This document shows, in pieces, positions 5,793 to 60,596 of a stretch of DNA of 64,000 nt (positions within the stretch are counted from its first letter, which is position 1; each line of letters begins with the position of its first letter). Below the pieces are notes generated by a model. The model was not told the origin of the DNA, did no database searches, and saw only the letters and a program-made list of their open reading frames with translations. The DNA is from Amoebophrya sp. A120 (Eukaryota; Protista; Dinoflagellata): positions 9,940,385 through 10,004,384 of the forward strand of contig CAJINV010000004.1 of the NCBI GenBank assembly GCA_905178155.1. Direction: 5' to 3'. A program made the translations under genes and the position numbers.

Positions 5793-6889
5793 GAGCAATA
5801 GATGTCTCTTCACAATTGCTGCTCACCGGCGTTGAAAGTAGTTTCCAACCACCAGTGGTGGTGGTGATAATCTCGTCGTCGCACATACTCAAGAAAGGCC
5901 AACAAGCGCGTGTGTTTCATAGGCCCAGCTGCGCCATTTGGAAATACGACCACTTACACGTATAGTTCGAAGTATTAGACGCATTCATCTGCTGACGAGA
6001 TGGCAAAAATAAACGCTTCGCGCGCGTTCTTATCTGGAACAAGATCCAAAGTGAAGTTTCTATAACTACAAACACTAAAATGCACAGCAGGTTGAGTTGA
6101 ATGTTTATTTTCAGAAAGTGAAGTTGCAGTACACTGCAACCACTTCGATTGCTGCACTGTTCTTGTTTTGGCTGGTTCAGCCTTGATTTGCTGTTCGTGC
6201 GGTCCCATCAGTATCTTCATCTTCACGACACCAGCCGGCAAATCAATGGCTGTCCCGGAGGTGTCTCCGACACTGACTCCATGTATGAAAAGCATCTGTG
6301 GTTCTGGTTGTGATTGAATTCTGTGGCTTTTCGGTTTTGAAAAGGCGGTGTCCCAACTGAAGGAAATAAACCCTAGAGCTTAAGTATTCAGGAAGATGAA
6401 AACCCCTTTGCTCCAGCTGATGCACATGAGAGCGAAGAGGACATCATCACCTTGATTGAGAGACAGGAGGGAGGTATACAGCTGTTTATCACTCATCAAG
6501 ATAACGGATACGATTTTCCATTCAACCAAAATGTTTGTAGCTGCAAGTGAGTGATGAAGATCCTCCGATTTAGTGATGCAAGTGTGCCGACGTCAAAGTC
6601 AAATACATTTTGTTCGAAAATAATGAGGTCGTTGCTCGTAATCTTCTTGTCTTGGTTTTGTTTCTTCTCGAGAACGAACTAGTACCCGTCTGTCGTTTTC
6701 CCGTCCGTGCCGGTCCAGACGCGTCAACTACGAACGTGGTGCCACAGCGCCGCCAAGAACGCCAAGAACACACAACAGTCGCTTATTTTCGGTCTAGCCT
6801 CGTACGTCCTGACGTCTCGGTCTACCTCCGGCGTGATTTCCTCTTCCTGAGAGTCTGGAGCAGGTGGCCGTCTACCATCCGCCCCCAAG

Positions 6890-9800
6890 ATGAACATCAC
6901 CCGCCCCGATAAAAACAACATGAAGAACGCCGGGGAGGAGCTGGACCTCTTCTACCAAAATGACTTTTATGAGGAAGACACTGGCGAAAAGAACGGCGCA
7001 GATAATCCTACCCAAACGCAGCGGGACGAAGACGTCCAGGCCAACCGCTTCGAGATTGGCACCCCGGCCCCGAGTGCACGGGTAGATCGAACGTCGGACG
7101 ATGTTCAGCGCGACCACTACACGCCGGGGAGCTATTTGCAGATGTCGGCAAACAGTGTTGCCACTTCGTCGGCAGAGTACTTCAGCATTGCTTCGGCCAG
7201 GGGCGAGGGGACACAAGGTCTGCCGGTGGAGTCCTTCGATTTGAGTAGTTCGCGCACAAACAAAGCCGCGGAGGTGCAGGCACGACAGAAGGCCGCGTTT
7301 TTCCAGGCTTTTGGTGCGAAAGCGGACGATGACGACGGGGGGGAAGTGGACGAGACGGCGAAAAAATCTTTTAGCGCGAAAGGACAAGGATTAATCGTCG
7401 ACAACAATTTGTTCCAAGCAGCTGAGCCAGACATCGAGATGGGAGTCTTCACACCCACCTCGGCTTCACACAACAACCATCAAGCCGGCAACCCCAGTAC
7501 TGCTAGGCCGAGAGACCCGTGGCACGGGTGGCGGGTGGGGACGCAGGACTCGCGGTTGTTTTTCTACAAAAAGGACTTCCGGCAATACGAGATGCCCACG
7601 GTGATGGAGAGCCGCGTGTTCGGGAAGTGGAGGTTGGTGTACCCCAACGACGGCACGAAACCGTTTTACTACAACCGCAAGCTGAACCTGTCCCTGCCGA
7701 ACCACCCGGTGAACACGTTGAACGTGTTTGACGCCTGCTTCAAAGGCGATCTGTTTTACCTGCACCTGTTTCTGGACGCCTTCTGGCTGGAACTGAGCCA
7801 GGGTGTGTACGACATAGTGGACGACACAACAGGGGGTGAGGGCTCCCGCTTCGGGGCTGCAAGTAGTTCCTCCTCCAGCATCGAACTATCGGGCGCGGAC
7901 GAGACCACAACTCAAGAACAGAAAGATAGCGAACAGCCAGTTACTTCGAAGAAGGCTACGAAATCATCGAGGACGAGATCTATGCATTGAAAAAGTATCG
8001 TACTTGTATAGGTAAATGCATTACAAATTTCCCCAGCATGAGAAAAAAAAAGGTTTGTCATGCGAATTTACCTTAAAAAGAAAATTTAAATTTGTATATG
8101 CATGAATGCAATTACTACGAACGAGTACGATACTTTTGCCCAGGATAAGATCCGCCGTGGTTCAATCCCTCGCGACCATCGCGGAGGAGGCTATGGATGT
8201 GTCCGGTTCGAAATCGACAAAGTTGAAATGATTTGTCATGCATAAAATGCAAGGCATGATGTGCCTGTCTTGCCGGGATGGCAAGTGAGGCCGATTGTGA
8301 GCTTGTTTAGGGTTTGAGATAAAGCTGCTAAAGTAGCATAACAAAAGACGCCTTCTGTCCCTAAACAGCATGACAAATTGGATTCCGGTGCTCGGAAAAT
8401 TTGTCATGCGCCACGGCGGGTGGCTCGCAGCAATAAGGAAACTGGCAAGGGTAAACATCTGTCTGTGCTTGCAATGCGCTGATGGACTGTGCTCTGCCAA
8501 ATAGTGAAGTAATTTGGACTACTCCAGTTCTGGTCCCGTTGCTGTATATTGTGCGCGGGTGCTGGGTGGAAAGGTCCAACAAATATGTTGGCGTGTGTGT
8601 GTGTGTGAGGAGGAAAGTTTGGAGTGCCAGGTCCGTTGGGCCCGGGGTGGCGGCGTCTTTGGGTTGATCAAATCACCCGAAACACAATGCCACCTCGTGT
8701 TGCACAGTCTGTTTATGTCATGCGCCACTTGGAAACTGCGCTTCCGACTGGTATCGGCTTTATGCATGACAAACTATAATTTCAACTTTGACGATTTCAA
8801 TCCTGACACTCCCATAGAGGCCGCGGCGGTGGAAGAGGTGCGGAAGCGAAAAATGGACAAGTTGCAGCGACTCGCGGAGAAGTTGCAGATCGGGGCCGCC
8901 GCGCCGGTCGGACCCTTTCCAGCGGTCGGCGGGGGGAAGCGCCCGGTCCTGTTTTTCGAAGGCGAGCACGCCATGACGCCCGGTGGAAATAACAACGGCA
9001 GCGACGTGTCCACACCCTCGGGGCGAACGCCGAAGTCGCCACTGTACCGCGGCGACCGGCTGATCACGTCGGGGTTTAGCTTGACGCAGCAGGACTCGAA
9101 GAATTCGAGTGTGGCTGGAGGGCCAACAGCTTCCGTTCTTTCTGGATATCGAATGCAAAAATGTCTGGGTCTGGAAGAATGCAAGATTTGTCATGCATAT
9201 TTCTCATGACCGATGATGCCTAGAATGCTTGGCCTAGCATCGCAGACTTTTAGAGGGCTTCCTGATGCATCTTCCGCATGAGAAATACCCTGTCCGTGTA
9301 GCAAATACTGTACCCCTCTTGCTGGTCATGCAATACAAATTTTTTTAGAGTCCAAAAGCAGCATGATAAGTCGCAATCTTCCAGACCCAGACACTTTTGC
9401 AGTTGATACTGGAGCAGGGGGTGCAAGAACTCCACTGGTGCCAGGCAGTCCTACGAGGGCCGCGGGCGCTGCGGCAACCGTTGGCGAAAAACCGGGCACC
9501 AACATGACAACGCCCGCACCTGAAATGAAACCCAAGATGACTGTGGACAAGGCCGCTGCGATCATGAAAAAAGCGGCTACTCTGGTACCGAAATTGTCCT
9601 TGACGCCACCGGGCAAGGACGTGAAGAACGCCCAACCGGCTTCTGGGGGGAAGATGATGATGCAGCACTTGCCGCAAGAAGGCCTCGCCAAAGCGAAACA
9701 GAGCGGGTTGGCGACCGCCACAGCGTTGCTGGCAAAAATCAAGCAGGGGCAGGCCTCGTCCTCTTCACCCGCAGGAGCTGCTTCGCCGAAGTCACTACTG

Positions 9801-12800
9801 CAAACAGGCCCTGTAGTACTGGGCGTGCCGTCGTTACGTGGAACAACACTTGCGTCGTCGCCTTTGGTGGGTGGGAGCAGCCGTGGAGGTGCAGCTGCAG
9901 GAGTCTCAAACTTTTCTCCTGTCGCACAACTACAGCGGCCACGAGTCGTCGAACCAAAGGAAATGTCCGTGTCAGTACAGACGCCACGACTGGCGCGAGG
10001 TGCCGTCAACGAGGAAGAGGACTCCGAATCCAACGCTTCCAGCCGCGAGGGTGCTGTCGTGGCAGGAGCAAGCCTCGGGGCGGGAAAGAACGTGGTCGCA
10101 CCTTCTTCTCGAGTCCTTGCGCCGGAGAGTAAAACGAGCGCCGTGGACGAAGAGGTGGAATTGTTCGTGGGCGCAAAGTATGCATTGCAAATATGTCTGG
10201 GTCTGGAAGGTTGCAAGTTGTGATGCTGTGTTTCCACACTAAAAAGATTTGTACTGCATGACCAGCAAGAGGATTCCAGTTTGTGCTACGTGGGGGGGCA
10301 TTTGTCATGCGGAATAGGCATCAGGAAGCATTCTAAAAATCTGTGATGCTAGGTTCCGCATTCCAGACCTCATGGGTCATGGGAAACCTGCATTACAACC
10401 TTGCACTCTTCCAGACCCAGACACTTTTGCAGTTGATACAAAGGAAATCCTGGTCACGGAAAGTCCCTCCCCCTCAGAATCTCCGTCGCCCCCGCTGACC
10501 GCGCGCTTCCCCGTATCATGAGGAAAAATGCCCCCTCCCCATATCGAAACAAAGTTTCTGATGCTGGATTTCCATACACAGATCAGATTTGTCTTGCAGT
10601 AGAGGAATGCACGCATATGTCAAGCCTCAGCCGAGAGGTTTGACGTAGGCGCCTAGCATGATAAACGTGTATGCTCTGAGCCAAACAGCATTACAAACCG
10701 CCTGAAAAATGCGGAACGCTTTCTGGACTTGCCTTCTTGCAAGACAGACAGGATTTGAGGTCACAAATGCGCATCACAAATTTTCAGACGGATACGCTTT
10801 CGATATGGGGAGGGGGGATTTTTCACTTCGATACCCCGCCTCGACGCCTCCGCTGACGTCTCGCGTACAGCCGGGAGCTTCGACATCGCCCCCACTGACC
10901 GCGAGAATGTTGGTACCGGCCTCGTCCTATGAAGATGAACTGCAAAAGTACCGTACTCCTACTCGTATAAATGCATTACAAATTTTTTCAGCATGAGAAA
11001 TAAAATTTCTAATGCGGATTTACCTTACAACAAAGATTTGTAATGCAAGACTTGCATTTCCATTTATACGAATACGTATAGATACGATACTTTTGCACAG
11101 GATACGTCCACGCCGCCCCTGACCGCCAGGATTGATCCGGACAAGCCACTGCAGCTGCAGACGGTGGTGGATGGAGTGCCCGCGAAATTGCATGTAGTTT
11201 CCGAGGGAGGAGGTCCTCGTGGCGGAACTAAAGGACGAGAAAGTGCTGGAATAAAGTCGTCTCCTGTGCAGCCTGCAAAAAAACCTACAAACTCTTGGAC
11301 ACCACAGAAAAAGTCCTCGACGCAACAAGAAACTATTCCGGCAACTACTAATACACCGACTGCCGCGAAGCAAGTGCAACAAGAGGGACAACTATCCGGC
11401 GCTTCCTCGCGAAAAAAGTCCTCGACCGCGACCCCTGGCGGAAGTACCATTGGTGGAAAGGCCCCGGCGCGAGAACTTCTAGTGGATGAACAAAAAGCGG
11501 CAGCTGTGAGCATGAGCAGCAGTGCCAAGAAAAATCAAACCCCTTCTGCTCCTGCAGCTAATGCTAGTGCAGCCGCTAAAGCACCTGCACCACCAAAAGC
11601 AAAAGCTGCTGGAGGTGGTCCTGATCCTGGTTCAGGAGCTGCCCAGGACGAGAAACCTCCGTCCCCGCAGCGTCTTATCCAGGCCGTTCCTCTGATCTCG
11701 CCAGCAACGGAACAGCTGCCCCCAAGTGGGGAACTGCAAGAAGGGCAATTACAAACGACGTACCCAAGTAGAACCAACGAGCCCTCCGCATCCACCGAGG
11801 AAGCGGCGAACGTGCGCGACGCGGTGCAGACTTATCCTTATCCTTGGAATGAGGGGAAGGATTTGCCGCCAGAGACCGCCTCACCGGTGCGCGGAAAAAT
11901 TCACGCGAAAGTCGAAAAGCGGAAACACCAGAGGAGGCTGTCCGCCCTGCGGCTCACGCAGATTGAGATAAGCAATCGCACACATCATCGATCATCCGGG
12001 TCTGGAACATTTTTGCAGCAGAGGGGCGGGGTGGTCATCGCCATGCCTTATTTCCTCAGAGGCCATTTCCATGCCATGCGTCATTGCCATGCCACAGAGT
12101 TTTGTGAGAGATTGTGTGAAGTTGAAGATCCAGAGCTAGCATGACTCATTCTCGAAACCACTTGAATTGAAATCGAGACTCGGAACTACGATATGTGCGC
12201 TGCATATGAGAATTACTTGAGCTATTCGGACCTGGATGTCGCGGCCACGCCGTCAGCGAGCAGTGTGGTGCAACAAGGGACACGACCAGCACCGGTGGTG
12301 CCAGAGTCCCCGGTTTTCAGCGAGCATTCCGGTGCGGGCACCCGCACCAGCCAGCAAAGCTCAGTTGCGGCGAGCTTCCACGAACTGCATGGTTTTAACA
12401 ACAGCAGCATGACCACGTCAGGGCGAAGCAATAAATTGGCTTCATCACAGACGAGCACGGGAACAAATAAGAGACAGCATGACTTGGAATCGGTCCTGGC
12501 AAAGCGGACGCTTCTGTACGATGATAAGGAGAACGTCATTTTCGAGAAAACCTCGCGTAAAACCCTCGTGCACTACGCCTGCATGGCAACCCAGGAGCGA
12601 ATCGTCCAGTACCTCGTGGAGTGCCACTCGTTCGGCATCCAAACGGTCGACGCCATGGGCTTCGCCCCGCTGCACATCGTGGTGCGAAACGGCGCACTGT
12701 CCCTGGCACGGTACCTCCTGCACGCGCGCGCGAACGTGAATGACAAAACGCGAAACGAGTTTGCGGACACCGCCCTGCACATGGTTTCCAGCCTGGCCAT

Positions 12801-14049
12801 ATGCAGTGCAAATATGTCTGGGTCTGGAAGCTTTCAACTTGTGATGCTATGCTTCGACTCCAAAAAAATCTGTATTGCATGACCAGCCAGAGGAGTTCAG
12901 TTTGTGCTACGCAGAGAGGGCATTTCTCATGCGGGTCAGGGATCAAGTTCAAGAAGGCCTCAGAAAACCTTTGATGCTAGAGCATACATCACAGATATGA
13001 TGGACTATGCAAAATGTGCATGACAAACTTGGCTTCTGCCAGACCCAGACATGTTTGCAATCCATAGGCCAACCCCTTTTCCATCACGTCCTTGCTGCTG
13101 GAGTACCAGGCCAACTGCTTCGAAACCAACAGCGACCACTGCACGCCCTTAGATGTGTATGAGAGTGCACAACTCCCCCTCCCCCTCATTTCAAGGGCAT
13201 AAACAGCAACACAAGTCCTGGCATCAACGCAGCTTTTGCATGACAAATTTTCGACCGATTCTACTGCTGTTTCGGCTTCTGGAATTTGCCATGCAAGCAG
13301 TGCCAAAGGGAAAAGGGTGGATTAGCATTTGCTGTTTTGCATGACAAATGAGGGGGAGGGGGAGTTGTGCACTGTCATAATGTGGTGCAGCGTTCCAAGA
13401 ACCACCCGGCGCGAGACGCCTTGCTCTTGATTCTGCAACGGGAGTCGGAGCGGCAACAGCACGCGGAGAAGCAGCGGCAGGCGAGTGGTGCGGAGGGCGG
13501 CTCTATGACAGTGCACAACCCCCCCGCCCCGTGATTTGTATAGCATGAACGGCAATACAAGCGCCAGCGAGAATGCAGGTTTTGCATGGCGAATTTGCAC
13601 AGGATTGTCGTGCTATTATTTGGGCTGCCAGAACTTGTCATGCAAACAGTGCCAAGATAGAGGCACAGCCTGGATTGGGCATTTCGCATGACAAATGAGG
13701 CGGAGGGGGAGTAGTGCACATTCATAGGCTCTTCCAGTGGCGAAGAGGTGGACATCACGATGTCGGAGCGGTCGGCAGAAAAACTACTGGGCCACGACAC
13801 GATCATATCGCAGGAAAAAAGTGGTACAGTGCAGGCAAAGCAAGACAGACAAGCTCTCTCATGCCGGATATGCATAGGAGCCTCGTTTCATAGGTGTTTT
13901 GCCGTAGGATTTCTGCATTACAAGTTTGCTCTCTCATGCAGAGAAATTTGTGTTGCTGAATTGACAACAAATGTGTAACTGTAACTTTTTTCGTGGGATA
14001 AATCACTCGGAGAATCTGGGCGAGCCTGGCGGCGTTCATTGGGAGGTAG
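6890..14049 (+). CDS. WW-domain and ankyrin-repeat protein, about 1382 aa, 12 exons separated by 11 introners
   Basis: Two WW-like motifs (WRVG..LFFY..P; WRLV...PFYYN..P) and ankyrin repeats (TLVHYAC, APLHIVV, TALHMVSSLA|NPFSITSLLLEYQAN..CTPLDV). Exons 6890-7980, 8153-8191, 8822-9146, 9414-10178, 10444-10513, 10839-10927, 11110-11968, 12212-12799, 13072-13157, 13385-13503, 13732-13805, 14006-14049 sum to 4149 nt, with one open frame ending TAG. Confidence 0.85.
7981..8147. mobile_element. TIR introner, family B
   Basis: TATGCATTGAAAAAGTATCGTAC...GTACGATACTTTTGCCCAGGATA; DR AGATC; frame restored. Confidence 0.9.
8192..8816. mobile_element. TIR introner, family D, carrying a nested insertion
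   Basis: About 38-bp imperfect TIR TATGGATGTGTCCGGTTCGAAATCGACAAAGTTGAAAT; DR GAGGC; sibling at 52392-52698. Confidence 0.9.
8415..8715. mobile_element. 301-bp insertion nested in an introner, flanked by a 13-bp duplication
   Basis: TGTCATGCGCCAC at 8402-8414 and 8716-8728; the motif is single-copy and the insert absent in sibling 52392-52698; internal (GT)n run. Confidence 0.7.
9147..9408. mobile_element. TIR introner, family A (inverted orientation)
   Basis: TATCGAATGCAAAAATGTCTGGGTCTGGAAG...CTTCCAGACCCAGACACTTTTGCAGTTGATA; DR CTGGA; 267-nt removal joins ORFs 8514 and 9363. Confidence 0.95.
10179..10438. mobile_element. TIR introner, family A
   Basis: Same TGTCTGGGTCTGGAAG TIR; DR CAAAG. 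Confidence 0.95.
10514..10833. mobile_element. TIR introner, singleton TIR type
   Basis: TATCATGAGGAAAAATGCCCCCTCCCCATATCGAAA...TTTCGATATGGGGAGGGGGGATTTTTCACTTCGATA; DR CCCCG. Confidence 0.9.
10928..11104. mobile_element. TIR introner, family B
   Basis: TATGAAGATGAACTGCAAAAGTACCGTAC...GATACTTTTGCACAGGATA; DR CGTCC. Confidence 0.9.
11969..12206. mobile_element. Degenerate TIR introner
   Basis: TAAGCAATCGCACACATC...GATATGTGCGCTGCATA; DR TGAGA; 243-nt removal joins ORFs 11164 and 12193. Confidence 0.8.
12800..13066. mobile_element. TIR introner, family A
   Basis: Family A TIR; DR GGCCA; removal rebuilds an ankyrin repeat. Confidence 0.95.
13158..13379. mobile_element. TIR introner, family C
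   Basis: TATGAGAGTGCACAACTCCCCCTCCCCCTCATT...AATGAGGGGGAGGGGGAGTTGTGCACTGTCATA; DR ATGTG. Confidence 0.95.
13504..13726. mobile_element. TIR introner, family C
   Basis: TATGACAGTGCACAA...GTAGTGCACATTCATA; DR GGCTC. Confidence 0.9.
13806..14000. mobile_element. TIR introner, A-tract type
   Basis: TATCGCAGGAAAAAAGT...ACTTTTTTCGTGGGATA; DR GATCA/AATCA. Confidence 0.8.
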
Positions 14050-17242: not shown

Positions 17243-20200
17243 ATGAGTGCTGGCACAGCTCCGGGACCACCCTACATCGCCCTCCCTGGTGGAGCTGGGG
17301 GCCTAGCACCCTCCAATATGGCAAACGCGAACAATGAAAAAAAGACCAACTCGCCTCCACCCCCGATATTGAAGGAGAACAAAATGCGTTTTAGCGACGA
17401 AAACAAACGAAAGCTGAGCTGTGTGATGGAGTCCATGACGGCGGAAAAGGTAATGCTTTTATGAAGGGCGTGAATTTATTTTGCATGCGTATTCTGCGTA
17501 CTTATCAAAAACAAAATCTTCGAATCTACAGGGATTGTACTTCCTTGCACCTTATTTCGTAAATTGCAAGATTTCATCGTCAATAAATACGACAGATCTC
17601 GGCACTCAAGACGTCCTTTCAGAACAAAAGCGCGCTGGGTAAGAACCTCATACCGGGTGCTATGAGAGTGCAGAGGATGAACTCCTCCTTCATTCGGCTT
17701 CTTGTCGCTGGAAGATCTGCAAAGAGTGCGCAACTACTTACGCTAGGCATTGCCTTTTGCTTCTAGCTGCGGTACCGCAATGGTGCGTAACAAGTTCTAT
17801 ACAGAAGTAGCAGAGCGAGAACTTCACTTCTAGCACCCCAAACTACGAAGAAGTTGCTGTTGCGATAGTAAGATTTATAGGCCGCGGACTTGTCAATGTC
17901 ATGCAGCAGAAAGTACAGACCTTGTTCTTCCGAGCGGCCCTTTTGACTGCTGGTCTTGCCTTCCGAATGGCCTACAACTGAAGGAGGAGTACTTGTGCAC
18001 TTCCATACCTGGCTCAGGTGCACAAGACGAGGCAACCAAGCAGGAAAAATCCTATGCCCAGAAAGTTGCAGAATGCGTCTCCGGGCTGGTCTCCTCGAAA
18101 AACGGCACCTTGATCGGACCGAGCAAGGGGGATGTGATCGGAGGGTTCACCCTCGGGCTGATACTCATGGCGCAGTCCGTTGCCCACGCGGGTCTTTGCG
18201 GTTTGAGTGGGGCGGACTTGATTCACGGGCCCTACAGCTGCATATTACCGCCGCTGATCTATGCGTGTCTCGGCTCCAGTCGCCACGGTTCGGTCGGGAC
18301 CGGGAGTCTGGTGGCGTTGCTGACGGGACAGTTCATCAAGAACGCGGAGATCAACAATCACCCAATAGCGGCACAGGTGAGTAGAACATGATGTGACATT
18401 TTTGCGACAGACGGCTAAGCTTCTTCTCCGCACAGAAGTGGTTGGCACTGTGATCTTCGAACAAAAATTATCGTTTGGTTCTTTTCTCATTCTTTATGCA
18501 AAAAGATGTTTTTTTATCAAATTCAAACATCACTGCAGGTCGTGTGCATGACCACCATAGTGGGGATCGTTTTGATCCTGATGCGGCTTCTCCAGCTCCA
18601 AGCGCTCGTGAAATTTCTCTCCCGCGCGGCCCTCGTCGGTTTCGTGTATGCGGTGCAAAAGTATCGTACTAGTATAAATTGCATGACAAATTTGCTCAGC
18701 ATTACAAATGAAATTTCTCATGCTGATTTACCTTGAGAAAGAGATTTGTCATGCATAATTGCAATTACTACGAGTGCGATACTTTTGCACTCCATATCGC
18801 GAACGCCTCCGCGATTCTGATCATCGAGTCCCAGTTCCGCGCCGTGATCGGGTTGAGAAAAGACCCCAACCAACCACAAGGGTTCCCGGGAAAAGTGTTT
18901 GATTTGGTGAAGCAGCTGATCAACCTGGACTTCGTGAACTGGCAGATCGGGGCCTTGGGTTTGGCGCAGTTGCTGCTGTTGTTCGCGGCGAAAAAGATCA
19001 GTAAGTCCAAGTGGATGAAAGACGCGGCGGAGCAGAAAAAGGGTTGGGTTCCGTTTCTGAAATTCATCTTCAAAATGAAAGATATCGTCGCGGTCTGCTT
19101 CGCATTCGCGGTCTCCTACGTGGTCACGGAAAACTACCCGGCTGTGGACCTGAACAACGTAGGTGCGTTGCAGTCCGGGCTCCCAGCAATGATCTTTCCA
19201 CCATCGCCAATAGCGGTAAAGATCGCGCCACCCGTTGTATTACCGTCAGACACGACCCCGCCGTCACGACCTGTTGACCCCTGCGACCCGAGTAACACCC
19301 CAGACACGGTTCTTTTCTACTTCGGTAGCGAAAACGCGGACGGCCACACCTCGTGCGTCCGCGTGTCCGGGTTGTGGCAACAGCTGCTTCCCGGCGGCGC
19401 GGTGGTTGCCTTTATCGCATTCCTGTCGTCATTTGCCGGCGCGAAGAAATTTGCCTTGCAGGACGGGACGTATCAGGTCGACGCGTCGAAGTATCTCAGA
19501 GAAAAAAGCCAGCATGTCATGCAGTGAGGATGCAAGAAGCAAGAGACGCGACGAGATAAGTATGTAGTTTTGTGTACTTCATTCATCGAGACGTATCTGT
19601 TTTTGCATTAATACAGTCGCTAGCTTTTTCTCTTCGATACGAAAGAATTGAACGCGCTTGGGACCGCGAATCTTCTCGGCTCGTTTTTCGGCGCCATCCC
19701 GGTGCAGGTCGGCTTGAGCAGAGTATGACATTGCACAAGAACTCCTGCTTCCCCTGCGACCCCTCATTGGTCTTGCCAAAATTATAAATCGAAAGTAACT
19801 TCTAATAATTTCCTTCTGAGGAGCATTACAGCATTCATAAAATTCAAAATCCAGGCGCTGCCGTGGTGGCGGTTCTTGCGGATTTACTGTCATGCGATGA
19901 AAGCTACATGTTTATTTCTAGTTGTGGCTGCAACTGAAGGTGAAGGGCAAGGAACATGGAGGGGAACTAGTCCTGGTTCTGCACCTTCATACCGCACCGC
20001 GATCGGCTACGAGGCCGGCGTGCAGTCCCAGTGGGGCGGGAACGTCGTGGTGGCCGTGATGGTGATTTTTCTCTCCCTTCTCTTCACCCCGATCTTCCAC
20101 TACGTCCCGCAGTCCACGCTCGCCGCGATTATCATTTCCGGTGCCTCGGGGCTGTTCGATTTCCAGATCGTGCGATACCTGTACAACATGGAGCCCGAAC

Positions 20201-22507
20201 TGTACAAGAAGCGCGGCTTTTGGATCAACATTGTGGCTTTCGTCGGAACGCTTCTTGTCGGCGTCGCGCAGGGCATTTTGGTCCCGGGGTTTCTCTTATG
20301 AAATGCAAAAGCATCGTACTAGTAGAAATCGCGTGACAAATTCCGTCAGCATAAAAAATGAAATTTGTAATGCGGCTTGAGGTTAAGAAGGAGATTTGTA
20401 ATGCATGACTGCGATTAGTACGAATGCGATACTTTTTTCAGAGGATTTCTCTCCGTCTTTTTGCTCATCAAGGACGCGACAAAACTGCGCGTGCGGGAAA
20501 TGGGAAAGCTACCGCAGTCGAATATGACAGTGCACAATTAGTCTCCTCTTTTCTTATTATTTTATTTTGGAAGGACAACTGCAACTGGAAAGAAGTGGCT
20601 GTTGAGTTTTGCATCACAGTTACAACCAGAACCATCTTAATTCACCAGAGTGGGGGACCACGAGTTGTGCACTAGCATATGGGAATCTTGGAGAACGAAA
20701 GACACTTGGAAAACAGCAAGATCTGTGCCGGACATTTTGGCGTTGCGGCTCGAGGGCAATCTATGCAATGCAAAAGCATCGTACGAAGTATAAATTGCAT
20801 TACAAATTATAATTGACTTAGCATTACATAATGCTGATTTACGTTGAGAAAGAGATTTGTAATGCATAAATACAATTACTACGCGTGCGATGCTTTTGCA
20901 GAGGATACAGTCTGACCTTTAGCAACGCGGATGCGCTGTTTGATGAGATAACGAAGCACGTTGGTATAATATGTTTTTTTGAAGATTTGATGAAAGAAAA
21001 GAAACAAATTTTAAACCCGGATAAACACGTAATGAGTGAATGAGTGAATGAATTTTTTAAGGAGGTAGGTTTTTTTTGCGTAGTTCTTCGAAGATGTTTC
21101 AAATTCATTCATTAGCGTCATGGAGCAAAGACCCTAGAGTTTCTATCGCATGAACAACAACAGAGGGCAACGGCGGGCTCGAGGGTGATGCCATCAAGGC
21201 TCTGGTTCTGGACATGGGCAACGTTGCGATCTGCGACTTCTCTGCCCTCGCGGTCTTGGAGGAGATGGCAGCAGCCTGGCGGAGGAAGAAGAAATTCCTG
21301 ATCATAGTGGCCACACGGGACAACATCCGCGAAAGATTGGAACGGTTACTCATGCCGCTGATACCCAACCCGTCACTGCTACTGAACACAGACGACGGGG
21401 TCACGCTCGCGAAATTTCTCATCACCGGGGAGGCGGCGACCCGACCAAGCTCGCCCGTAAGGAAAAGCTCGAAGGACCAAAGTATGGAAGCGCCAGGAGG
21501 TGGGAAATTTCGTCAAAATCGGAAAAGACTGCGATTTATTTGCATGCGCGCGGGCCCGCAACTTTGAAGGTGCGCAGGAAAAACAAGAAGCCCAAATCCA
21601 ATACACGATAGCAATACGGTTTGATGTATCTCCTGCTCCGAAATAACGCACTTCTTTTGCCATGCTCTTTCGCAATATCTCTGGCTACCATTGGCTGTGA
21701 CAGGCAACTGTACATTGTGTTCTGCAATGCAGACATTTCTTGGAAGCATATCATGTCATGCATCACAAACCAATCCATCGGGATTTTCGTTTTGCAACCT
21801 TTTCACGACCTGGCACTTCCATAGACGGCCAGCAGGGTTCCTTACAGAAAGTGGTGATAGAATACGACGAGAAGACGTCCGTAGGATCCGCATCGGTACC
21901 ACGGATTTTCATTTTTTTGTAGTTTTAAGTTTAGCATAAGCTATCACATTCACCGTCGATCTTCTTGCACATCCGGCTTATCATAGGTACATCGTAATCC
22001 CGAGGGATCCACCTCCGACATGTTGATGCAAAACACTCTACACAGATTCCACCGTCCCTGAAGTCTTTCGTCTGGGCAAAATTCAACGCGGACGAGCTTG
22101 ACGAGATGCACAGTGAGTTGCACAGTCGCTACGACGCCGTGGCCCACCGGTCTTCTAGCCGAGACAATGGCCCTTCGTCCACTAGTAGGGACACCGGTCC
22201 ACTAAATCAGCCTTTGCTCAGCACGAATGATAGATCGCAGTCCGCAGACAGTCCGCAGCGTGGTAACGCCCCCTTCTACCAGCCCACGCAGCGGCTGTCC
22301 GGTGCAAGTGTCGGGTCCGACGCGAGTCGATCGCCGGGGCAGGAAAGATGGACGAAACTCGGAACCTCAACCTTTTTTCAAAGTCGAAAGCTGAACGTGC
22401 TGGAATCGACGCGGTTAAACCGGGAATTTTCGGAAGTCGCGTTAACCCCGATAGCAGCGACGGCGAGCAACCCGGCTAATCCGAGCAGAGACAACCTGCT
22501 GCAGTAG
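17243..22507 (+). CDS. SLC26/SulP-family anion (sulfate) transporter with C-terminal STAS domain; multi-exon
   Basis: GDVIGGFTLGLILMAQSVAHA, LIYACLGSSRHGSVG, DASK|ELNALGTANLLGSFFG..GLSR, PQSTLAAIII, LRLEG.LTFSNA, LVLDMGNVAICDFSAL. Seven introners plus GT-AG introns (18377-18538, 20964-21163, 21896-22045). The 5' exon structure (17243-18016) is uncertain. Confidence 0.9.
18647..18796. mobile_element. TIR introner, family B
   Basis: TATGCGGTGCAAAAGTATCG...CGATACTTTTGCACTCCATA; DR TCGTG/TCGCG; restores GF(V/A)NASA. Confidence 0.9.
19492..19639. mobile_element. TIR introner, A-tract type
   Basis: TATCTCAGAGAAAAAAGC...GCTTTTTCTCTTCGATA; DR CGAAG/CGAAA; restores DASKELNALG. Confidence 0.85.
19724..19991. 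mobile_element. TIR introner with decayed DR
   Basis: TATGACATTGCACAA...TTCTGCACCTTCATA; flanks CAGAG/CCGCA; 5-nt rule restores GLSR(T/A)AIG. Confidence 0.75.
20297..20447. mobile_element. TIR introner, family B
   Basis: TATGAAATGCAAAAGCATCGTAC...CGATACTTTTTTCAGAGGATT; DR TCTCT; restores PGFLSVFLLI. Confidence 0.9.
20523..20679. mobile_element. TIR introner, family C-like
   Basis: TATGACAGTGCACAA...TTGTGCACTAGCATA; flanks TCGAA/TGGGA. Confidence 0.8.
20762..20907. mobile_element. TIR introner, family B
   Basis: TATGCAATGCAAAAGCATCG...CGATGCTTTTGCAGAGGATA; DR CAATC/CAGTC; restores the STAS motif G(N/S)LTFSNA. Confidence 0.9.
21483..21823. mobile_element. TIR introner with decayed DR, D-related
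   Basis: TATGGAAGCGCCAGG...CCTGGCACTTCCATA (14/15 match); flanks CAAAG/GACGG; 5-nt rule restores the frame. Confidence 0.8.
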
Positions 22508-23525: not shown

Positions 23526-25648
23526 ATGGAGCATTCCCAGCACGGGGCCTCCGTGTCCTCCACGAGGCCTTCGCATGGAGGTGGCAGCCCGAGCGGGGAC
23601 AAGAAGAGAACGCAGCTGTTGTTCGATATGAGTCTCAAGCAGGGCGACCATGCCGCCGTGTTTCTGCATGGCGAGAGCTACAAAGGCGAGTGGCTGAACG
23701 ACAGAAAGCACGGCTACGGGGTGTTCACATACAAGGACGGTAGGAAAGTTTTTGTCATGCAGGAACAGATGACATATTCGCATGGTCTGAGTTGAAACTA
23801 CAACCCTACATTGTCTCTATTTGCACACATTTTCACCACAGGCGGCAGCAAATATGAAGGGCAGTTTGCACACAACAAGAGAGAAGGCGAAGGAGTCCTG
23901 TGGATGGCAGAGGGAAAACTAAAGATGCGAAAGGAATACATCGGCGTATGGAAAAACGACAAGAGGCACGGGAAAGGTATTTTTATTCTAGTGGATTCGA
24001 TGAGACAGAGAAAGTAGAACATTACTTGTCATGCAGAAGACGATGAAAGCCAGCAACTGCAATAGCAATACTACTGGTAGTACCAAGACGAGGTCAATTT
24101 GGTTTTGGTTTGTGCTGCAACAACACACTGACAATTTGAATTTTCCACTCGAAACCATTGAAAAAAAGGCACCGCCTTTTACCCGCATGGCGAGTGTTAC
24201 CAAGGCGAGTGGCAAGACAACAAGAGACATGGAGAAGGGCAAATGAAGTACAAGGACGGGTCACTTTATGTAGGGCAGTGGTTCGACGACGTCAGGACAG
24301 GCTACGGTACATTTTCATTTTGTTTAGCCGTGTTATTCAGGATTTGCATGACAGAGTCGGCCTGTAAAAACAAAAAGTCATCACACCAACACAACAATAA
24401 AAACAGGTCACCTAACAAAGGGAAACGGCGACGTATACGAGGGCTATTGGGTGAAGGACGCGAGGGAAGGCGGGGGCAGTTACTTCTACAAGTCCACCGG
24501 AAAAGTGTATGTGGGCGAGTGGGCAGCAGACCAACCCATCGCAGGGTCCTTCCAGCAGGCTTTAAAAAATCCAGCGGAGCCAGGTACAACAAAAATAATC
24601 TTTCGTAGACGTACAAATGGATGCTGAATCTCTGTCATGGGAATGCGAAAGGCACAGTGAGTTATTTCTCATGCAAGTTACTCCAACAAAGATAAACACA
24701 AACTTGAAAATAAACCGAGGTGTCCTCCCCGTGACCAACATCGTCCCGAACCTCCAGCTCCAGGATTCGGAAGAGGTGCTCGAGACCGCCCTCCAGCACG
24801 TTCGTGCCAGCAGGCTGCTTTTCCGCGCCGCGCACACCCCACTGGAAAAACTGTACCCGAACACCGCAGATTTGCAACAACTGAAGCAAGCGTTTGCGGC
24901 TTTATCCCCGGACCAACTGGCGAACCAATTTCACGCGGTGGTCACTACGCACCTGGAAATCCTCCCACCGACAAGTTCGAAGACAAAGTTAGACGCCGTC
25001 GTCGCCTATCAAATGTAAAAATGTCTGGGTCTGGAAGGTTGGAACTTGTGATGCTAACTTTGGACTCTCAAAAAAACTGCATTGCATGACCACCAAGAGG
25101 AGTCTAGTTTGTGCTACGCAGGGAGGGCATTTGTCATGCGGAGTAGACATCAGGAAGCGAAGCCCTCTAAAAATCTGTGATGCTAGGTTGCGCATTACAG
25201 ATATCCTGGGTTATGCGAAATATGCATGACAAACCCGGAAACATTCCAGACCCAGACATTTTTGCATTTGATATCGCGAAAATGTTTTTGTTGCTCGGGC
25301 AGGTGGACACGGACCGGTGGGAATTTCCGGTTTTCGCTAAAATCGTCGCTGATATGCTTTGTAATATTGCCATGATCTTTTTATTTATTCGGGAGTACAA
25401 TTTTGTATGTAGTGCGCAAGTTCTTGTGCGCCTACAAGGGCGACTGTGCAACATTTTGCATGCTTATGCATGTACACGTTGAGCGACTTCATGGTGATTT
25501 TGCAAAGGATAGCGCTTCTAGTGGACCAGGCGCCGACGTTTTGAGCATAGGAATCGGACTTCTTGAACAACTATTTGGAGAGGAAGAAAACCAAAAAGAA
25601 AGACGAGAGTCGTGTTACTGTCCTACAAAGACAGTTGTGATTGTCTAA
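23526..25648 (+). CDS. MORN-repeat protein (MORN3-like)
   Basis: Repeated YxGxWxxxxRHGxG units (YKGEWLNDRKHGYG, YEGQFAHNKREGEG, YIGVWKNDKRHGKG, YQGEWQDNKRHGEG, YVGQWFDDVRTGYG). GT-AG introns 23740-23841, 23977-24168, 24307-24406, 24584-24719; introner 25007-25273; 3' end uncertain (25482 or 25648). Confidence 0.85.
25007..25273. mobile_element. TIR introner, family A
   Basis: TATCAAATGTAAAAATGTCTGGGTCTGGAA...TTCCAGACCCAGACATTTTTGCATTTGATA; DR TCGCC/TCGCG. Confidence 0.95.
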
Positions 25649-26457: not shown

Positions 26458-28121
26458 ATGAAGGGTCAAATGAAGGGAGGCGCCAGGCCGGAAACGGCGG
26501 CGAACAAGGGCGGTGTGCATCCCGCGGTGCAAGCAGCCGCCGCGGTTGCCGAGAAGGTCGCGGAGAAGGTTGCCGTCCCTCCGTCTGTGCCGAGCAAGCC
26601 CTCGGCCGTGATCGACGCTGCTGCTGCGGTTGGGCCGCAGAACTGGTTTGACACAATCACATCGGATCCGCTGTCTATGAGAGTGCACAACTCCCCCTCC
26701 CTCTCATTTCTCATGCAAAATACCAAATCAGGGCTGTCACTCTCACTGTGGCTGTGCCTCTTGGCACTGTTAGCATGACAAACTCCGGAAGCCCAGACTA
26801 CAGTACTACAATCCAGTGTAAACTTGTCATGCAGAACCGGCATTCTTGCTGATGCTTGTATTGCCGCTCATGCTACACAAACGAGCGAGGGGGAGGGGGA
26901 GGTGTGCACTGTCATACTGTCCCGGGTTTTCGATCTCGCGGTGATTTTCATCGTGTTCGGGTTCTGCGTCCATATGCAAATGTAAATTCACATACACCTG
27001 GTGACATCATGAGGTGCACATCTACAGCTGCACATCTACAGTCGCATAGACAAAACTCGATAGCAGGAACGCTCGCTGACAAGCATGAGAAATTGTAATT
27101 GTCTTTCTAGAGTTCATCTTTGTCTACTTAGGCTAGAAGTGGTGAACAGATTTATCTTTTATGTAGTTTTTGTACGTGTACGTCGTCGGTCGTGAATTTG
27201 TATTGCATACCTCACACGTATATCGAGTACAGTATGGACAAGGAAAAGGGGGAGCTGCCGGAAGAAGCGGAGCGGGACGTGGAGAAAGAAGACAAGGGAA
27301 CGACGAAATCTGGGTATAAATGTTTCTTTCGAATTCAAATGCAATGCTCGCATGACAACTATGGATTCTATTCGATGCTTTCGCATGACAAAGAAATCCA
27401 AAACGAGATGTTGTAAAAAAAATTATCAGTTGGATGAAAGTTTTCGGGCTCGTGCTTTTCGCAGTGATCGGGTGGGAATACCGCGGTTGCTTCTCCTGCG
27501 CCATCCAGGAATACTCGAGTATTTCTTTACTTACTTAGATAGGTTACGAAGAAGTTTTTCCGATTTCACCGCAGATGTGATTAAAGGTCGGTCCGCATGA
27601 GGACAACGACAATTTTCACTTTGTTCTACACATGCACATCAATGGACGTTCATTGCATGTTGACACTGGCATCGTATTCATCAAATTCAAATCAGCCGTG
27701 TGCAAGCTGTGGTTCCAGACGTTTTTTTCCATGGTGGGGCCGGTGTTTGAAAACTTTGTATGGCGTTCTCAAACGTTACATTCTCAACTGTTACCCGATT
27801 TGTCATGCAAAAGGAACATCAAGCCCCACATACATTCACATTGTGAAGCTACTTCGCATGACAAATTTCGGAAAAGCTAAACAGCATGGGTGTCTGTGCC
27901 GCATTTGTAATGCAGCAAGAGTTGCAAGCTCCGGCCTTTCCCTTTTGCCATTCTTGCATCACAAATCCATGTAACTACAGTTGAGAGTGTAACAGTTGAG
28001 AGCGCCATACTTTGTCTCTGAAGCGTCGAAGAAAAATCCGTATGAAGTGGCGACTGCGGTCTCGGTGATTGCGGGCGGGGCCGTCTTGCTCTGGGCATTC
28101 AAGACGCGGAAGGGCAAGTAA
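26458..28121 (+). CDS. Small hypothetical membrane protein, multi-exon
   Basis: Removing introners gives DPLSRVFDLAVIFIVFGFCVHTYIEY... and ...FENFVSEASKKNPYEVATAVSVIAGGAVLLWAFKTRKGK*; the middle exons (27430-27700) are ambiguous. Confidence 0.6.
26676..26916. mobile_element. TIR introner, family C
   Basis: TATGAGAGTGCACAACTCCCCCTCCC...GGGAGGGGGAGGTGTGCACTGTCATA; DR CTGTC. Confidence 0.95.
26973..27209. mobile_element. TIR introner with decayed DR
   Basis: TATGCAAATGTAAATTCAC...GTGAATTTGTATTGCATA; flanks GTCCA/CCTCA; frame restored. Confidence 0.75.
27759..28009. mobile_element. TIR introner, singleton TIR type
   Basis: TATGGCGTTCTCAAACGTTACATTCTCAACTG...CAGTTGAGAGTGTAACAGTTGAGAGCGCCATA; DR CTTTG. 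Confidence 0.9.
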
Positions 28122-32300: not shown

Positions 32301-34225
32301 CGAAAGGGCGAAAAGCGAAGAAAAAGCGAAGCTCCGTCGACGAAACTGAAACTGGCAGAAAACGCGTCGATGCTGTAATGCTTGTCGCTGACACCATCAA
32401 GGCGAAGCAGGAACACAGATATCGCATCAAATGTATGCTCTACGATACGTTGCATTTCTACAAGCGCACTTTCATGCTTCCATCCGTCGAAACACTGATG
32501 GTGGGAGAGGGAGTTACTTCGAACGCGGCCGACACATTGGATCACGGCAAGACCCAGATCAGCTTCTGTCTGGATAAATGGGTCGACTTTATCGTAGACT
32601 GCGAAAACGATTCCTTTTTCCGCATCTGCCTGTTGTGGTTCTGGCCATGTAGTCCGAAGACGGACTTAGCTTGGAGCAGATTTGTTGAGGCAGCGCGTCA
32701 TGATCGCTCGAAAGGTGGAGCCCGTCGTGGCACCACGACCAGCGTAGATGCATCTGAAGATGACATCAGAGTCCGCCCCTGTGCGTTCGTGGACAGCACC
32801 AGAAATGATGAAGCTTTGCGCGAGCGACTGGATTCGGAATTGGCCTCCTGTATGTACGCGTGGCGGAACTTGCTGGCTGGGCGATTCCGTGCTGCAGCTT
32901 CGGTGTGCCGCGACATCACGAAACACCTCAGACTGACGTGCCCGTCGGTGTTTCTCTGCGAGTGCTTTGCCTTGCTGATACTGCGCTGCCAGGTGCAGAC
33001 CGAGGAGGAGTTTGACGCAATCTCCCCGGGGAGAACCTGGTCCGACGCGGCAGCGGATTTGCGGGGGACAAAGGTCGGGAAAGCGGTCATTGTCCAACAA
33101 TTTTCCGAGACGCTCCGAACGCTCGACAGATACGCAGCTGCGGTGTGCCTGCTGCTCTACCGAAGTTCCAAAAGAAAGGCCATCTTGCACTTCGTCACGT
33201 CGGGAGACGAGATGTCGGCGGGCCCCGGTCGCTATCTCATCCAGCAAACGTTGTTCGCTGTTTGGGCGGTCGCCATGAAAGAACACTTCTGGGGAGACGC
33301 AGATAAGGGAATGGCCGAAGCAATGGCGCCGGCCGTTGAATCGTTTGAAGAACAGGTGGAACAACAAGGCAAGGACGAAATAAAAGGCACGAAAGCTACT
33401 GCAAAGTCGAAAGCGCAACGCGATTTCGAGAAGAAGAATGCCCTCGAGATTGCAACCCTTACGCGGCACGATGGCGTGTGGAACATCACGCCCGACCTGG
33501 TCGTGTATTCGCAAGATCCCCGAGTCAAGCGCATCTCGGATGACACCTTCGCAGCGATCCACCCGGATTTGGAGCTCTCCGATGAGCTGCGAGCCGAGTT
33601 TTCCGCTGCATTGGAGAAGGGTATGTGCGCGAAGCAACATAAGGCGAACGGAGTCAAGTTCCTTTCCAATGGCGTCGCGGAGCTGAAGATCAACGGAGAT
33701 ACCCGGCTCTGGACATCCACGAAGTACAAAGAACACAAGCAGGAAAGGTATGCTGTGCAGAAATCTCTATACCCCGCGACCAGACCTTTGAAAATGTCCA
33801 TGCACCTCTACATAGCAAAGAATGTTTTGTTTTTTTGCTGATTTCCATGGCACAATGAATTTGCATCTTTGTCTTTGAATTTTCCCGGGGTAGTTTTGAA
33901 CGTTTTTGCACAGGATATTTTTAAGGACGTCGATGACCCCCTGCAGGAAGCGAAAGTCCGCAAGACACTCTTGCTTTTCGATCATGAGGACAACCATGGT
34001 GGAGTGCGGCGGGCGGTAGAGCTTCAGAAGAGCGGTAATATGAAAGAGGTGCTGTGTGACCAACCGCAGCAGACCGACGAGGTGCGGTGTGGCGACATCA
34101 ACCGGAAAAAGGCAGAAGTTCGCAGCATTTTCAACAGCGTGATGACTGGGCGCCCGCGCTTTGTTCGGGATGCGCTAGGGATCGAGCCAGATGCGACGGT
34201 TGAAGAAGCGTGCCCGATTCAGTAA
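29341..34225 (+). CDS. Large ankyrin-repeat protein, paralog 1, with an apparent frame change near 31020 and a possible RelE-like C-terminal domain
   Basis: TLLHIL and RTPMHHAGFLNNAAATRMLLEHGASIAARDAGGFLPHHY ankyrin motifs; ORFs 29332-31044, 30845-33841 and 33869-34225 are colinear with the paralog at 35030-40199. Confidence 0.7.
33749..33917. mobile_element. TIR introner with fully decayed DR
   Basis: TATGCTGTGCAGAAA...TTTTTGCACAGGATA; flanks AAAGG/TTTTT; removing element plus 5 nt (174 nt) keeps the frame, whereas the two nearby GT-AG choices (166 and 178 nt) do not. Confidence 0.7.
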
Positions 34226-59540: not shown

Positions 59541-60596
59541 TAGTTTTTCTTCTGATGAAAATCATGGAGGCAGCTACTCAAAAAAGAAAAAGCCTGACGA
59601 GCTGCTTTTTTTGTGACGAGCGAAGATGAACCTGCTTCTCGAGTTTGTGATTGTGTAGAATTCTATAGCTGTGTACAGTTTGCATCTGTTGATGAAAATG
59701 TTTAGCACATATTTGATACCAGCTGGTCGTGTTTCGAGTTGTTGAATATTGCTATGTTTCTGTCAATTTTTACGAATTGCTATACACACATAGTTTCTTC
59801 CAGCTACTTACTAAGTTTCAGTTTGCATGATAAAAAGCGAAAACACTTTGAAACCGAGATGGCAAACGAATTTGGTTGTGCTGTTTCAGGAAAAAAATAC
59901 GGAATACAACAAGGAGCGAAAGATTGACTCTTCTTGCTCTTGGGGGTACGTACGATTGATTTCAGCGACTACTAGAAAAATGCGACAAATAAAAAAAGCG
60001 AAACCGCAACCACCTATACTGTGTTTTAATCAAAAGTGAAAAAGTTCTCATTTGGTGAGGATGACGTGAATCCGAAATCACGAGCTACTCCTTCGTCCGC
60101 CTGGGGATAGTTGCAGTTTTCAGAGTGTGTTGCGCAAAAAAAGTAATTCTCATTCTCCAAAGCTCACAGACAGGGTCGTGCGTCGTAGACGTTATTTCCG
60201 ATATTGATCATAGTCCATAACTCAAGAAAAAGCGAAGAAAAACGCCCTCGAATATACTTATTAATTTTCTTTTCGTCAGACAGAGTACTAACACTAAGGG
60301 TCACGGTGGTATTAAGCCTGCTGACATATCAGGCATAGAGACCTCAAGGAGATCATTCTGCGTAGCTAGTACAACCGGATGAACCACCTAAACGACCTTG
60401 ACGTCCAAGCAAAGCCAAGAAGACTCGTCAAAAATGATTCTAGTTCTCAACAAAGATGTCCGCGGCCAACTAGAAACTCATGCTCAATTATCCTCTGTAC
60501 CTGTAGCGACCGTAACTACAACGACGTTTTTTTCATCGGTAGGTTTCAACTTGTTTCTCAGAACCGAAAAACAGCATAAAAAACGACCCTTAAAAC

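Follow-up and report, generated by a model that had tools for sequence, protein, structure and literature searches.

The window, meaning the whole 64,000-nt stretch of DNA analysed, contains host genes for an ankyrin-repeat protein, a SulP/STAS transporter and an RRM protein, together with families of elements that carry TAT...ATA ends (Table 1). The host proteins match entries named Amoebophrya sp. A120. Thus, the elements are members of the published TAT...ATA introner elements of this organism. Amoebophrya is a marine parasite of algae. More than 60% of the Amoebophrya introns lack GT-AG, and their mode of removal is stated as open in the accessible text of Farhat et al. (2021; PMC7789003). 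According to the earlier note, made from the sequence of the window, all host genes lie on the + strand. Annotated proteins confirm this for the genes holding 7981–13504, 17661–21483 and 60697–63064, and GT-AG joints confirm it for the host of 25007, whereas for the host of 51201, 53473 and 54420 a weak codon score (29 versus 14) is the one indication.

Table 1. Host genes and elements in the window. For elements, the strand column gives the orientation of the copy; runs are those whose contigs skip the element.
Feature	Position	Strand	Remarks
Ankyrin-repeat gene P0002	6890–13804	+	1382 aa, mapped to residue 1368; ten elements including 9147 and 10179
SulP/STAS transporter gene P0003	17243–22504	+	952 aa; 8 element introns beside 4 of GT-AG type
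RRM protein gene P0001	60597–64000	+	1249 aa, extends beyond window; six elements, mixed orientation
Family A	9147–9408	-	TAT...ATA ends; 5-bp duplication CTGGA on both sides; inferred intron 9146–9412; absent from P0002
Family A	10179–10438	+	same gene as 9147; duplication CAAAG; inferred intron 10178–10442; majority orientation
Family A	12800–13066	+	duplication GGCCA; host is P0002 gene
Family A	25007–25273	+	imperfect duplication TCGCC / TCGCG
Family A	51201–51462	+	alignment
Family A	53473–53737	+	alignment
Family A	54420–54692	+	alignment
Family A	60697–60958	-	skipped as 267 nt; joint 60692>60960, 3/4 runs
Family B	7981–8147	+	majority orientation
Family B	10928–11104	+	majority orientation; 6-nt duplication within 5' arm
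Family B	18647–18796	+	duplication mismatch at position 4, register 4 or 5
Family B	20297–20447	+	3' end ATT
Family B	20762–20907	+	duplication mismatch at position 3, register at least 3
Family B	61021–61176	-	skipped as 161 nt, 3/4 runs
Family B	61983–62143	-	skipped as 166 nt, 3/4 runs
Family B	62619–62768	+	majority orientation, flanked by two reversed copies; skipped as 155 nt, 4/4 runs
Family B	62832–62987	-	3' end AAA, not ATA; skipped as 161 nt, 4/4 runs
Family C	13158–13379	+	13504–13726 co-oriented
Family C	26676–26916	-	reversed versus 13158 and 13504
Singleton element	25353–25511		duplication decayed to 2/5
Near-palindromic element	63064–63177		decayed duplication CCTCA / CCCTA; 3' end ATT

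The earlier note had listed eight copies of family A, two of them internally reversed, and all eight were found where it placed them. According to alignments of both strands in the window, family A has six copies one way and two the opposite way, and family B has six and three; the copies are not co-oriented. The copies 9147–9408 and 60697–60958 form a same-strand alignment of 81% over 262 nt, whereas both align with 10179, 12800, 25007, 51201, 53473 and 54420 on the opposite strand (71–80% over 255–267 aligned nt, E values from 1e-31 to 1e-63). The split survives trimming of 30 nt from both ends of each copy. Therefore, the terminal repeats are not its cause. The copies 9147 and 10179 are indeed neighbours in one gene, as both are missing from the annotated ankyrin protein. 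In family B, the final 28 nt of 61021–61176 are the exact reverse complement of the initial 28 nt of 20297, as had been noticed before, and the whole body aligns in reverse to 20297 at 81% over 156 nt. An end match of 28 nt alone is weak evidence of orientation in an element bearing terminal inverted repeats (TIRs). The copies 61983 and 62832 are further reversed members of family B beyond the earlier list, and family C (13158 and 13504 versus 26676) is the third mixed-orientation family in the window.

For a wider set of 239 elements, 208 elements from one metagenome assembly were added to those of the window; 92 of the 166 metagenome loci had no strand call and were dropped, and 74 were kept. 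Alignment of the copies on both strands, which the earlier note had proposed for the whole genome, gave in this set mixed orientations near 50:50 in 13 of the 14 families (for example 41:31, 16:16, 11:16, 12:5 and 6:6), and no significant orientation bias was detected in this set. Among 101 elements with frame-specific exon support, the ratios are 19:16 in family A and 8:6 in family B. The orientation graph has 64 inconsistent edges out of 1477 in family A and none in the other families. The end profiles of the 239 elements, for which the detector required near-TAT/ATA ends, consist of inverted repeats at both ends that start with TAT and contain an A-run. The direct repeat at the exon–intron boundaries matches at 5/5 positions in 184 elements and at 4/5 in 40. 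The elements are short and form repeated dispersed families with TIRs, a fixed-length 5-bp target duplication and random orientation, which are the features of MITEs. No match was found in a viral sequence collection.

The joints over the elements were taken from unstranded contigs of one sample, the RNA status of which is a guess of the tool, and none of the listed runs is registered as RNA; mapping of a single raw-read RNA run gave two partial reads. One 4063-nt contig of run X1 skips all six elements of the 60.6–64 kb gene, each by the element plus 5 nt. Four of these are reversed, one is forward, and one is a further element, so that removal in both orientations, as claimed in the earlier note, is observed in one contig. 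When the element plus 5 nt is cut out, the + strand reads without stops for 1092 and 792 codons, whereas cutting the element plus 0, 3, 4 or 6 nt leaves frames of at most 500 codons. In the ankyrin gene, a contig piece of run X1 begins at 9409, and the 229 letters preceding it do not run into the element 9147. This piece stops at 10173, and by hand arithmetic the 191 letters left over coincide with the three exon parts that follow. X1 and X4 contigs leave out 272 nt at the element 25007 (joint 25001>25274), and the fifth letter comes from the right copy of the duplication. Either way round, the elements are skipped in these contigs, which are likely RNA.

At sites with unequal 5-bp target copies, the junction agrees with a cut that lies 1 nt ahead of TAT and 4 nt past ATA, read along the transcript (the -1/+4 register, or register 4). 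All 24 of the annotated junctions agree with register 4, and no other value is allowed by every one of them. The joint 25351>25516, over the element 25353, gives exactly register 4 with zero sliding letters, and the element 63064, skipped as 119 nt in 4/4 runs, gives register 4 or 5. The mirror register 1 is excluded by seven elements in six sequence groups, whereas register 4 is excluded by none; six of these seven rely on annotated proteins, and only three of the six have a contig check as well, namely 18647, 63064 and, by their summed length, the SulP introns. Several elements of the SulP gene carry decayed duplications that inform the register. Most duplications are perfect (184/239), so most junctions are compatible with any register. 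The polarity was judged from a count across families, with p of about 0.03 if orientation is random; within families A and B, the duplications of the reversed copies do not discriminate between registers 4 and 1. At the -1/+4 register, all 24 annotated element introns begin N-T-A, and 7 of the 8 GT-AG introns seen begin GTA. A fixed -1/+4 register that follows the transcript and not the element is supported by these few informative sites. The element is blind to orientation, and the cut is polar. Of the strand-symmetric removal proposed earlier, one part holds, as both orientations are removed and the ends mirror each other, but the cut itself runs with the transcript.

In the transcript direction, the element ends are mirror images without a GT/AG rule. 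GT-AG is present in 10 of the 239 elements when the best register is taken and in no more than 18 when all registers are summed, and the canonical U2 donor and acceptor are not a feature of the set. Neither an AG acceptor (23/239) nor G at +1 (74/239) is a rule, and the comparison of G5 with the mirror C1 gives 41:41. An excess of AG at duplication positions 3–4 (20 versus 5 of 184 in the mirror) was rejected as a candidate signal, as the base frequencies multiplied together give the same value and the excess is one of four comparisons. The search for a branch point, suggested in the earlier note, yielded no one-sided word: after 225–355 tests, none was enriched at the 3' end over the mirror, although such tests are blind to a TIR-internal motif. 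The terminal hairpin, which that note took as part of the signal, is predicted as a stem in both orientations (z of -6.4 and -8.1), and the predicted inner stem probability is above 0.5 in 94–100% of the copies of three families. A role of pairing rather than of the TIR sequence is, however, unsupported: no selection for pairing was detected (G.U 207 versus A.C 204), and arm pairing within families shows no excess (456 versus 453 ± 10). The hint of 5'-arm conservation is weak, with 2 versus 10 at positions 1–2, and 10 versus 15 (p = 0.42) at positions 1–3 of a looser set. Damage to the terminal TA is seen in three annotated elements, in each case at the 3' end, and two of the three are still skipped.

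We presume, with a probability of about 0.5, that TAT...ATA TIR elements lying in exons either way round are cut by a remodelled spliceosome, 1 nt ahead of the 5' arm and 4 nt beyond the 3' arm. The elements would be non-autonomous DNA transposons, moved by a transposase, that insert with a 5-bp target duplication. The intron 5' end N-U-A may be read like positions +2/+3 of an ordinary GUA donor, and the 3' cut would be positioned by the distance from a paired or protein-bound arm, not by AG. As 1 + 4 equals the 5-bp duplication, any insertion, in any direction or target, would restore the original coding sequence, and because of this restoration at every insertion a family could spread through exons. 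The machine is likely a remodelled spliceosome: the N-T-A starts resemble GTA donors, and the element 60697 reads GT..AG exactly at the -1/+4 register. The 3' position of the terminal TA damage and the spliceosome components described for A120 also speak for it. Elements without AG, G+1 or branch-point asymmetry are hard for any known spliceosome. The earlier note had held two-way insertion against a directional spliceosome. By itself, it is no such argument, because the TIR offers the same ends either way and two-way GY/GA-AG introners are published. Somewhat more doubtfully than the remodelled spliceosome, a second splicing code without dinucleotides may operate, in which the machine docks on the TAT/ATA ends and cuts 1 and 4 bases off; it would be a spliceosome without U1, G+1 and AG, or an undescribed enzyme. 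If such a code is true, the two offsets sum to a value matched to the 5-bp duplication of the transposase, and every insertion disappears from the mRNA whatever its direction or site.

The main rival retains the orientation-blind -1/+4 ruler but assigns it to a separate non-spliceosomal pathway, either a structure-guided endonuclease with a ligase or a circularising excision. The missing G+1, AG and branch-point signals and the strong terminal stems predicted in both orientations agree with such a pathway, as do the fixed spacers around a paired motif in Euglena (PMC12501133) and the failure to detect U1 in A120 (PMC7789003), as far as the accessible texts report. We regard it as rather unlikely, as this register gives +2/+3 the U and A of GUA donors and lets chance targets become GT-AG introns, and as no selection on pairing was detected. 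Removal could also be truly symmetric or follow the element, if the cut slides in the direct repeat or the 1/4 offset flips with the element. The perfect duplications fit any register, the copies allow no within-family flip comparison, and sites are called variable relative to the hairpin in the Fig. 3 legend of Farhat et al. (PMC7789003). This explanation is improbable, since all seven discriminating elements exclude register 1 and register 4 alone is allowed everywhere.

Two further explanations are very improbable. Reverse-transcriptase template switching at a hairpin with a short direct repeat is a known artefact, for which such elements are the classic setting, and only cDNA-type contigs lie behind the joints; against it, in-frame and stop-free retention is possible for only 11 of the 239 elements, elements with repeats decayed to 2/5 are skipped at the same register, and a SulP homologue aligns gap-free across the 18647 site. 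Excision from the DNA before transcription, like that of ciliate IESs or of transposons, would suit TA-bearing inverted ends and orientation blindness, but X5 contigs read without gaps through the elements 19492, 19724 and 21483 as well as four GT-AG introns and pass from exon into 9147 and 10179, X1 and X4 skip elements and GT-AG introns within one contig, and a transcript-linked register is unexpected for a DNA reaction.

Given orientation blindness, directional signals cannot be carried by the element interior. With the -1/+4 register, 'variable boundaries' reduce to a single rule, which is checkable on public RNA-seq and usable for re-annotating tens of thousands of introns; the register also explains the low cost of the invasion to the host. 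Both these elements and, in general, introners of two orientations have been described before, whereas the -1/+4 rule seems to be unpublished.

The window elements share with the A120 introner elements (Farhat et al., 2021, PMC7789003; Gozashti et al., 2025, PMC12130899) the TAT-start inverted repeats, the A-run, the predicted hairpin, the direct repeats at the boundaries (3–5 nt there, 5 bp here), the lack of a dinucleotide signature, the dispersed families and the non-canonical removal, the last seen here in putative RNA of one sample. In the accessible parts of these publications, orientation is unreported and the sites are called variable relative to the hairpin, whereas here orientation is near 50:50 with one -1/+4 register; the phrase 'four nucleotides upstream', used of the direct repeats, may partly anticipate this register. 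Farhat et al. describe U2, U4, U5, U6 and nearly all spliceosome proteins in A120, without a U1, and find this layout of repeats also in 15% of the canonical introns (PMC7789003). The accessible text of PMC13326754 and PMC12621601 holds nothing on orientation, and a keyword search for two-orientation elements, including euglenids, found no papers. The introners of Polarella glacialis and Aureococcus anophagefferens (bioRxiv 10.1101/2020.10.14.339549) also make introns either way with target duplications. Their GT/GC/GA donors and AG acceptors come from the element or from the duplication, they depend on particular targets, and their orientation is biased to one side, whereas the elements here have no GT/AG rule, accept any target and show no significant bias. 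The IS3EU/GingerRoot and IS481EU transposons, as far as described in the accessible text of PMC10045372, share TIRs and TA..TA or TNT..AYA termini. The TA..TA termini of IS3EU/GingerRoot are present here, but the duplication is 5 bp and not the usual 6 bp, or about 4, 15 or 25 bp, of these groups. This likeness is a mere lead to a candidate mobiliser.

The nonconventional introns of Euglena (Nomura et al., 2025; PMC12501133) share the non-GT-AG ends, the paired termini, the direct repeats at the junctions and a proposed MITE origin. The word 'orientation' is absent from the main text of that paper, the authors of which favour non-spliceosomal factors in its accessible part. The Euglena signature 5'-N3CDG...CH'GN5-6|R is not that of the window elements, which read N-TAT...ATA-N4; the Euglena spacers are 3 and 5-6 with a purine at exon +1, whereas the spacers here are 1 and 4 and sum to the duplication length. 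Both have fixed asymmetric spacers around a paired terminal motif, as judged here from few informative sites. Beside Euglena, the Amoebophrya elements give a second, independent case of a ruler-type code around transposon ends.

At least 30 elements of 109–625 nt are present in the window, with a TAT start, an ATA end, complementary arms and a flanking 5-bp direct repeat. Elements are designated by their start positions. Family A is represented by eight copies. According to the alignments, families A and B lie in both orientations, as the earlier note had described for 9147 and 60697 and for 61021 relative to 20297, and the splits are unchanged after the arms are trimmed off. The family C split is 2 versus 1. 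Elements 9147 and 10179 are indeed neighbours in one gene, encoding the ankyrin protein P0002. A family-B-like 5' arm is located at 54086, and no matching 3' arm was found for it. Within the block of long ORFs at ~30–50 kb, a single TAT...ATA element was found, at 33749–33917, and it lacks a recognisable duplication.

Orientation of families A and B in the window, and lengths skipped by contigs over 60300–64000
Feature	Elements or length	Basis or relation
Family A, orientation 1	10179, 12800, 25007, 51201, 53473, 54420	alignment
Family A, opposite orientation	9147, 60697	71–80% identity to the other six, full length
Family B, orientation 1	7981, 10928, 18647, 20297, 20762, 62619	alignment
Family B, opposite orientation	61021, 61983, 62832	alignment
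Skip, family A reversed	267 nt	element + 5
Skip, family B reversed	161, 166, 161 nt	each element + 5
Skip, family B forward	155 nt	element + 5
Skip, sixth element 63064	119 nt	element + 5

Removal over 60300–64000 was read from contigs of four runs of one sample (X1–X4), unstranded and with RNA status guessed. A single 4063-nt contig bridges all six elements of this region, and each of the six joints was found in 3 or 4 of the four runs. Another contig piece starts at 9409, its 229 preceding letters not running on into 9147; the same piece stops at 10173, and the 191 following letters equal parts of the next exons (70 + 89 + 32, by hand arithmetic). Over the SulP gene, the DNA is 1591 nt longer than two of the contigs, a difference equal to the summed length of the eight annotated introns there. 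The putative-RNA runs skip four GT-AG introns in one contig together with two elements, whereas contigs of a further run, X5, pass through elements and GT-AG introns with no gaps. Thus, X1–X4 behave as cDNA and X5 as DNA. At 60672–60795, short putative-RNA contigs stack up in large numbers over the family A arm, with a summed depth of 700–1700 versus 0–67 on exons. They come from other copies and may represent RNA that is still unspliced, excised elements that are stable, or DNA.

When each element is deleted together with 5 further nt, stop-free frames of 1092 codons (6851–11963) and 792 codons (60580–64000) open on the + strand. Deletion of +0, +3, +4 or +6 gives frames of at most 500 codons, and retention of 9147 reduces the first frame to 638 codons. 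The gene models agree with the database proteins P0001 (RRM), P0002 (ankyrin) and P0003 (SulP/STAS), the latter two carrying the organism name Amoebophrya sp. A120. Irregular elements were also observed. Element 8192–8816 (625 nt) matches 52392–52698 in its first 223 and last 100 nt, and carries ~300 additional nt between these parts, a GT repeat among them. As it is missing from P0002 as one block, this element, whether nested or expanded, is still removed via its outer ends. In 10928–11104, a 6-nt internal duplication in the 5' arm shifts the stem; both the junction in the annotation and the length of the contig agree with removal at the outer TAT. Element 11969–12206 starts with TAA instead of TAT (duplication TGAGA), and a contig of run X4 links 11963 with 12207 across it. 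Therefore, position 3 of the 5' arm is dispensable.

Beyond the window, a family A motif search of the metagenome collection yielded 167 stretches at 166 loci. All of them belong to a single assembly, JACKZZ01, and long matches to the window are absent. The host strand was called by a codon model for 74 loci, and 92 were dropped. The 74 loci hold 208 elements, assessed from DNA sequence alone, and 31 from the window bring the set to 239. Both orientations occur in 13 of 14 families (205 elements), with counts of 41:31, 16:16, 11:16, 12:5, 6:6, 3:7, 3:5, 5:2 and others further. None of the families departs from 50:50 when the metagenome elements are counted on their own. Removal of the element plus 5 nt opens at least 150 nt on both sides in 116 of the 181 elements with enough flank, against 64 for +4, 62 for +6 and 61 antisense. 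Among 101 elements with frame-specific support, family A is split 19:16 and family B 8:6.

The cut register can be read where the two duplication copies differ, as the transcript then shows the number of letters kept from the left copy (k). The joint 25351>25516 fixes k = 4 exactly, 25007 allows 4 or less, and 63064 allows 4 or 5. In the three annotated proteins, k = 4 is the sole value permitted at all 24 element junctions, most of which are individually uninformative (19724 permits 0, 1 or 4). The mirror value, k = 1, is excluded by seven elements in six sequence groups (17661, 18647, 20523, 20762, 21483, 25353 and 63064), none of which excludes k = 4; this gives an intron of the form N-TAT...ATA-NNNN. 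Were the offset to turn round with the element, and were orientation random, agreement among six groups would be expected with a probability of ~0.03, a count taken across families, as no reversed family A or B copy discriminates k. The strand-symmetric removal proposed in the earlier note is thus not supported, and the cut is probably polar with the transcript. Removal is accurate even where the duplication has decayed to 2/5, indicating that the repeat is not the guide. Mismatches between the two copies of the duplication, counted in the transcript direction over the window and metagenome elements, fall less often at position 5 than at position 1 (3 versus 15 of 40 single mismatches; 6 versus 18 with double mismatches included, p = 0.02), possibly reflecting a constraint that ties intron +1 to the base with which the following exon opens.

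In the end profiles of the 239 elements, the two ends mirror each other in the transcript direction, and long terminal stems are predicted in both orientations (z −6.4 for 9147, −8.1 for 10179). To this extent the symmetric signal proposed earlier stands. Pairing as the signal found no support: no selection on RNA pairing was detected from G.U versus A.C (207 versus 204), and matches at arm positions 4–7 equal those of permuted arms (456 versus 453 ± 10). Transposition by itself would also be expected to conserve the TIRs.

A putative non-autonomous TIR transposon would insert in either direction, making the 5-bp duplication. A directional RNA machine would then meet identical TAT and ATA ends in both orientations of the element, and cutting at −1 and +4 (1 nt before TAT, 4 nt after ATA) would restore the original target. 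We favour a remodelled spliceosome as the remover, with a probability of about 0.5, because U and A occupy +2/+3 in 24/24 annotated cases at this register and in 7 of 8 observed GT-AG introns, the register turns 60697 into a GT..AG intron, and terminal TA damage is concentrated at the 3' end (3 versus 0 among the 24 annotated, 10 versus 2 among 239, weaker in a looser set). Removal by a separate, Euglena-like pathway is the less probable reading and stays a serious rival, since the lack of G+1, AG and a branch signal counts against a spliceosome. At most 10 of the 239 elements follow the GT-AG rule at any register, G at the last duplication letter shows no excess over the mirror (41:41), and no word near the 3' end is enriched over the mirror (225–355 tests), a comparison blind to any motif inside the TIR.

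The same elements were described by Farhat et al. (2021, PMC7789003), with the TAT start, 5-bp direct repeats, hairpins and missing U1; in the portions available, splice sites are called variable relative to the hairpin and 'orientation' is used of genes only. In Gozashti et al. (2025, PMC12130899), the A120 families compared (21 of 58 rows of one table) are mostly classed as TIR DNA elements, and their splice sites are mixed; the method of Gozashti et al. (2022, PMC9860276) allowed for opposite-orientation copies. Two-way introners with GT/GC/GA donors are reported for Polarella and Aureococcus (10.1101/2020.10.14.339549), and a fixed-spacer code is defined in Euglena (Nomura et al., 2025, PMC12501133), again from partial texts. 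In literature searches and in the compared parts of these papers and of PMC11282704, PMC8469720, PMC13326754 and PMC12621601, neither orientation blindness nor the −1/+4 register was found described for Amoebophrya; either may appear in figures or supplements, or in Huff 2016, Henriet 2019 or Roy 2023 (journal version). The termini resemble the TA..TA ends of IS3EU/GingerRoot and the TNT..AYA ends of IS481EU in the excerpted PMC10045372, the duplication here being 5 bp, and this likeness is a lead to the transposase. The elements themselves are already known, and two-way insertion has precedent. What seems new is a removal indifferent to orientation and target sequence that yet keeps one polar register, by which the way these introns are removed becomes directly testable.
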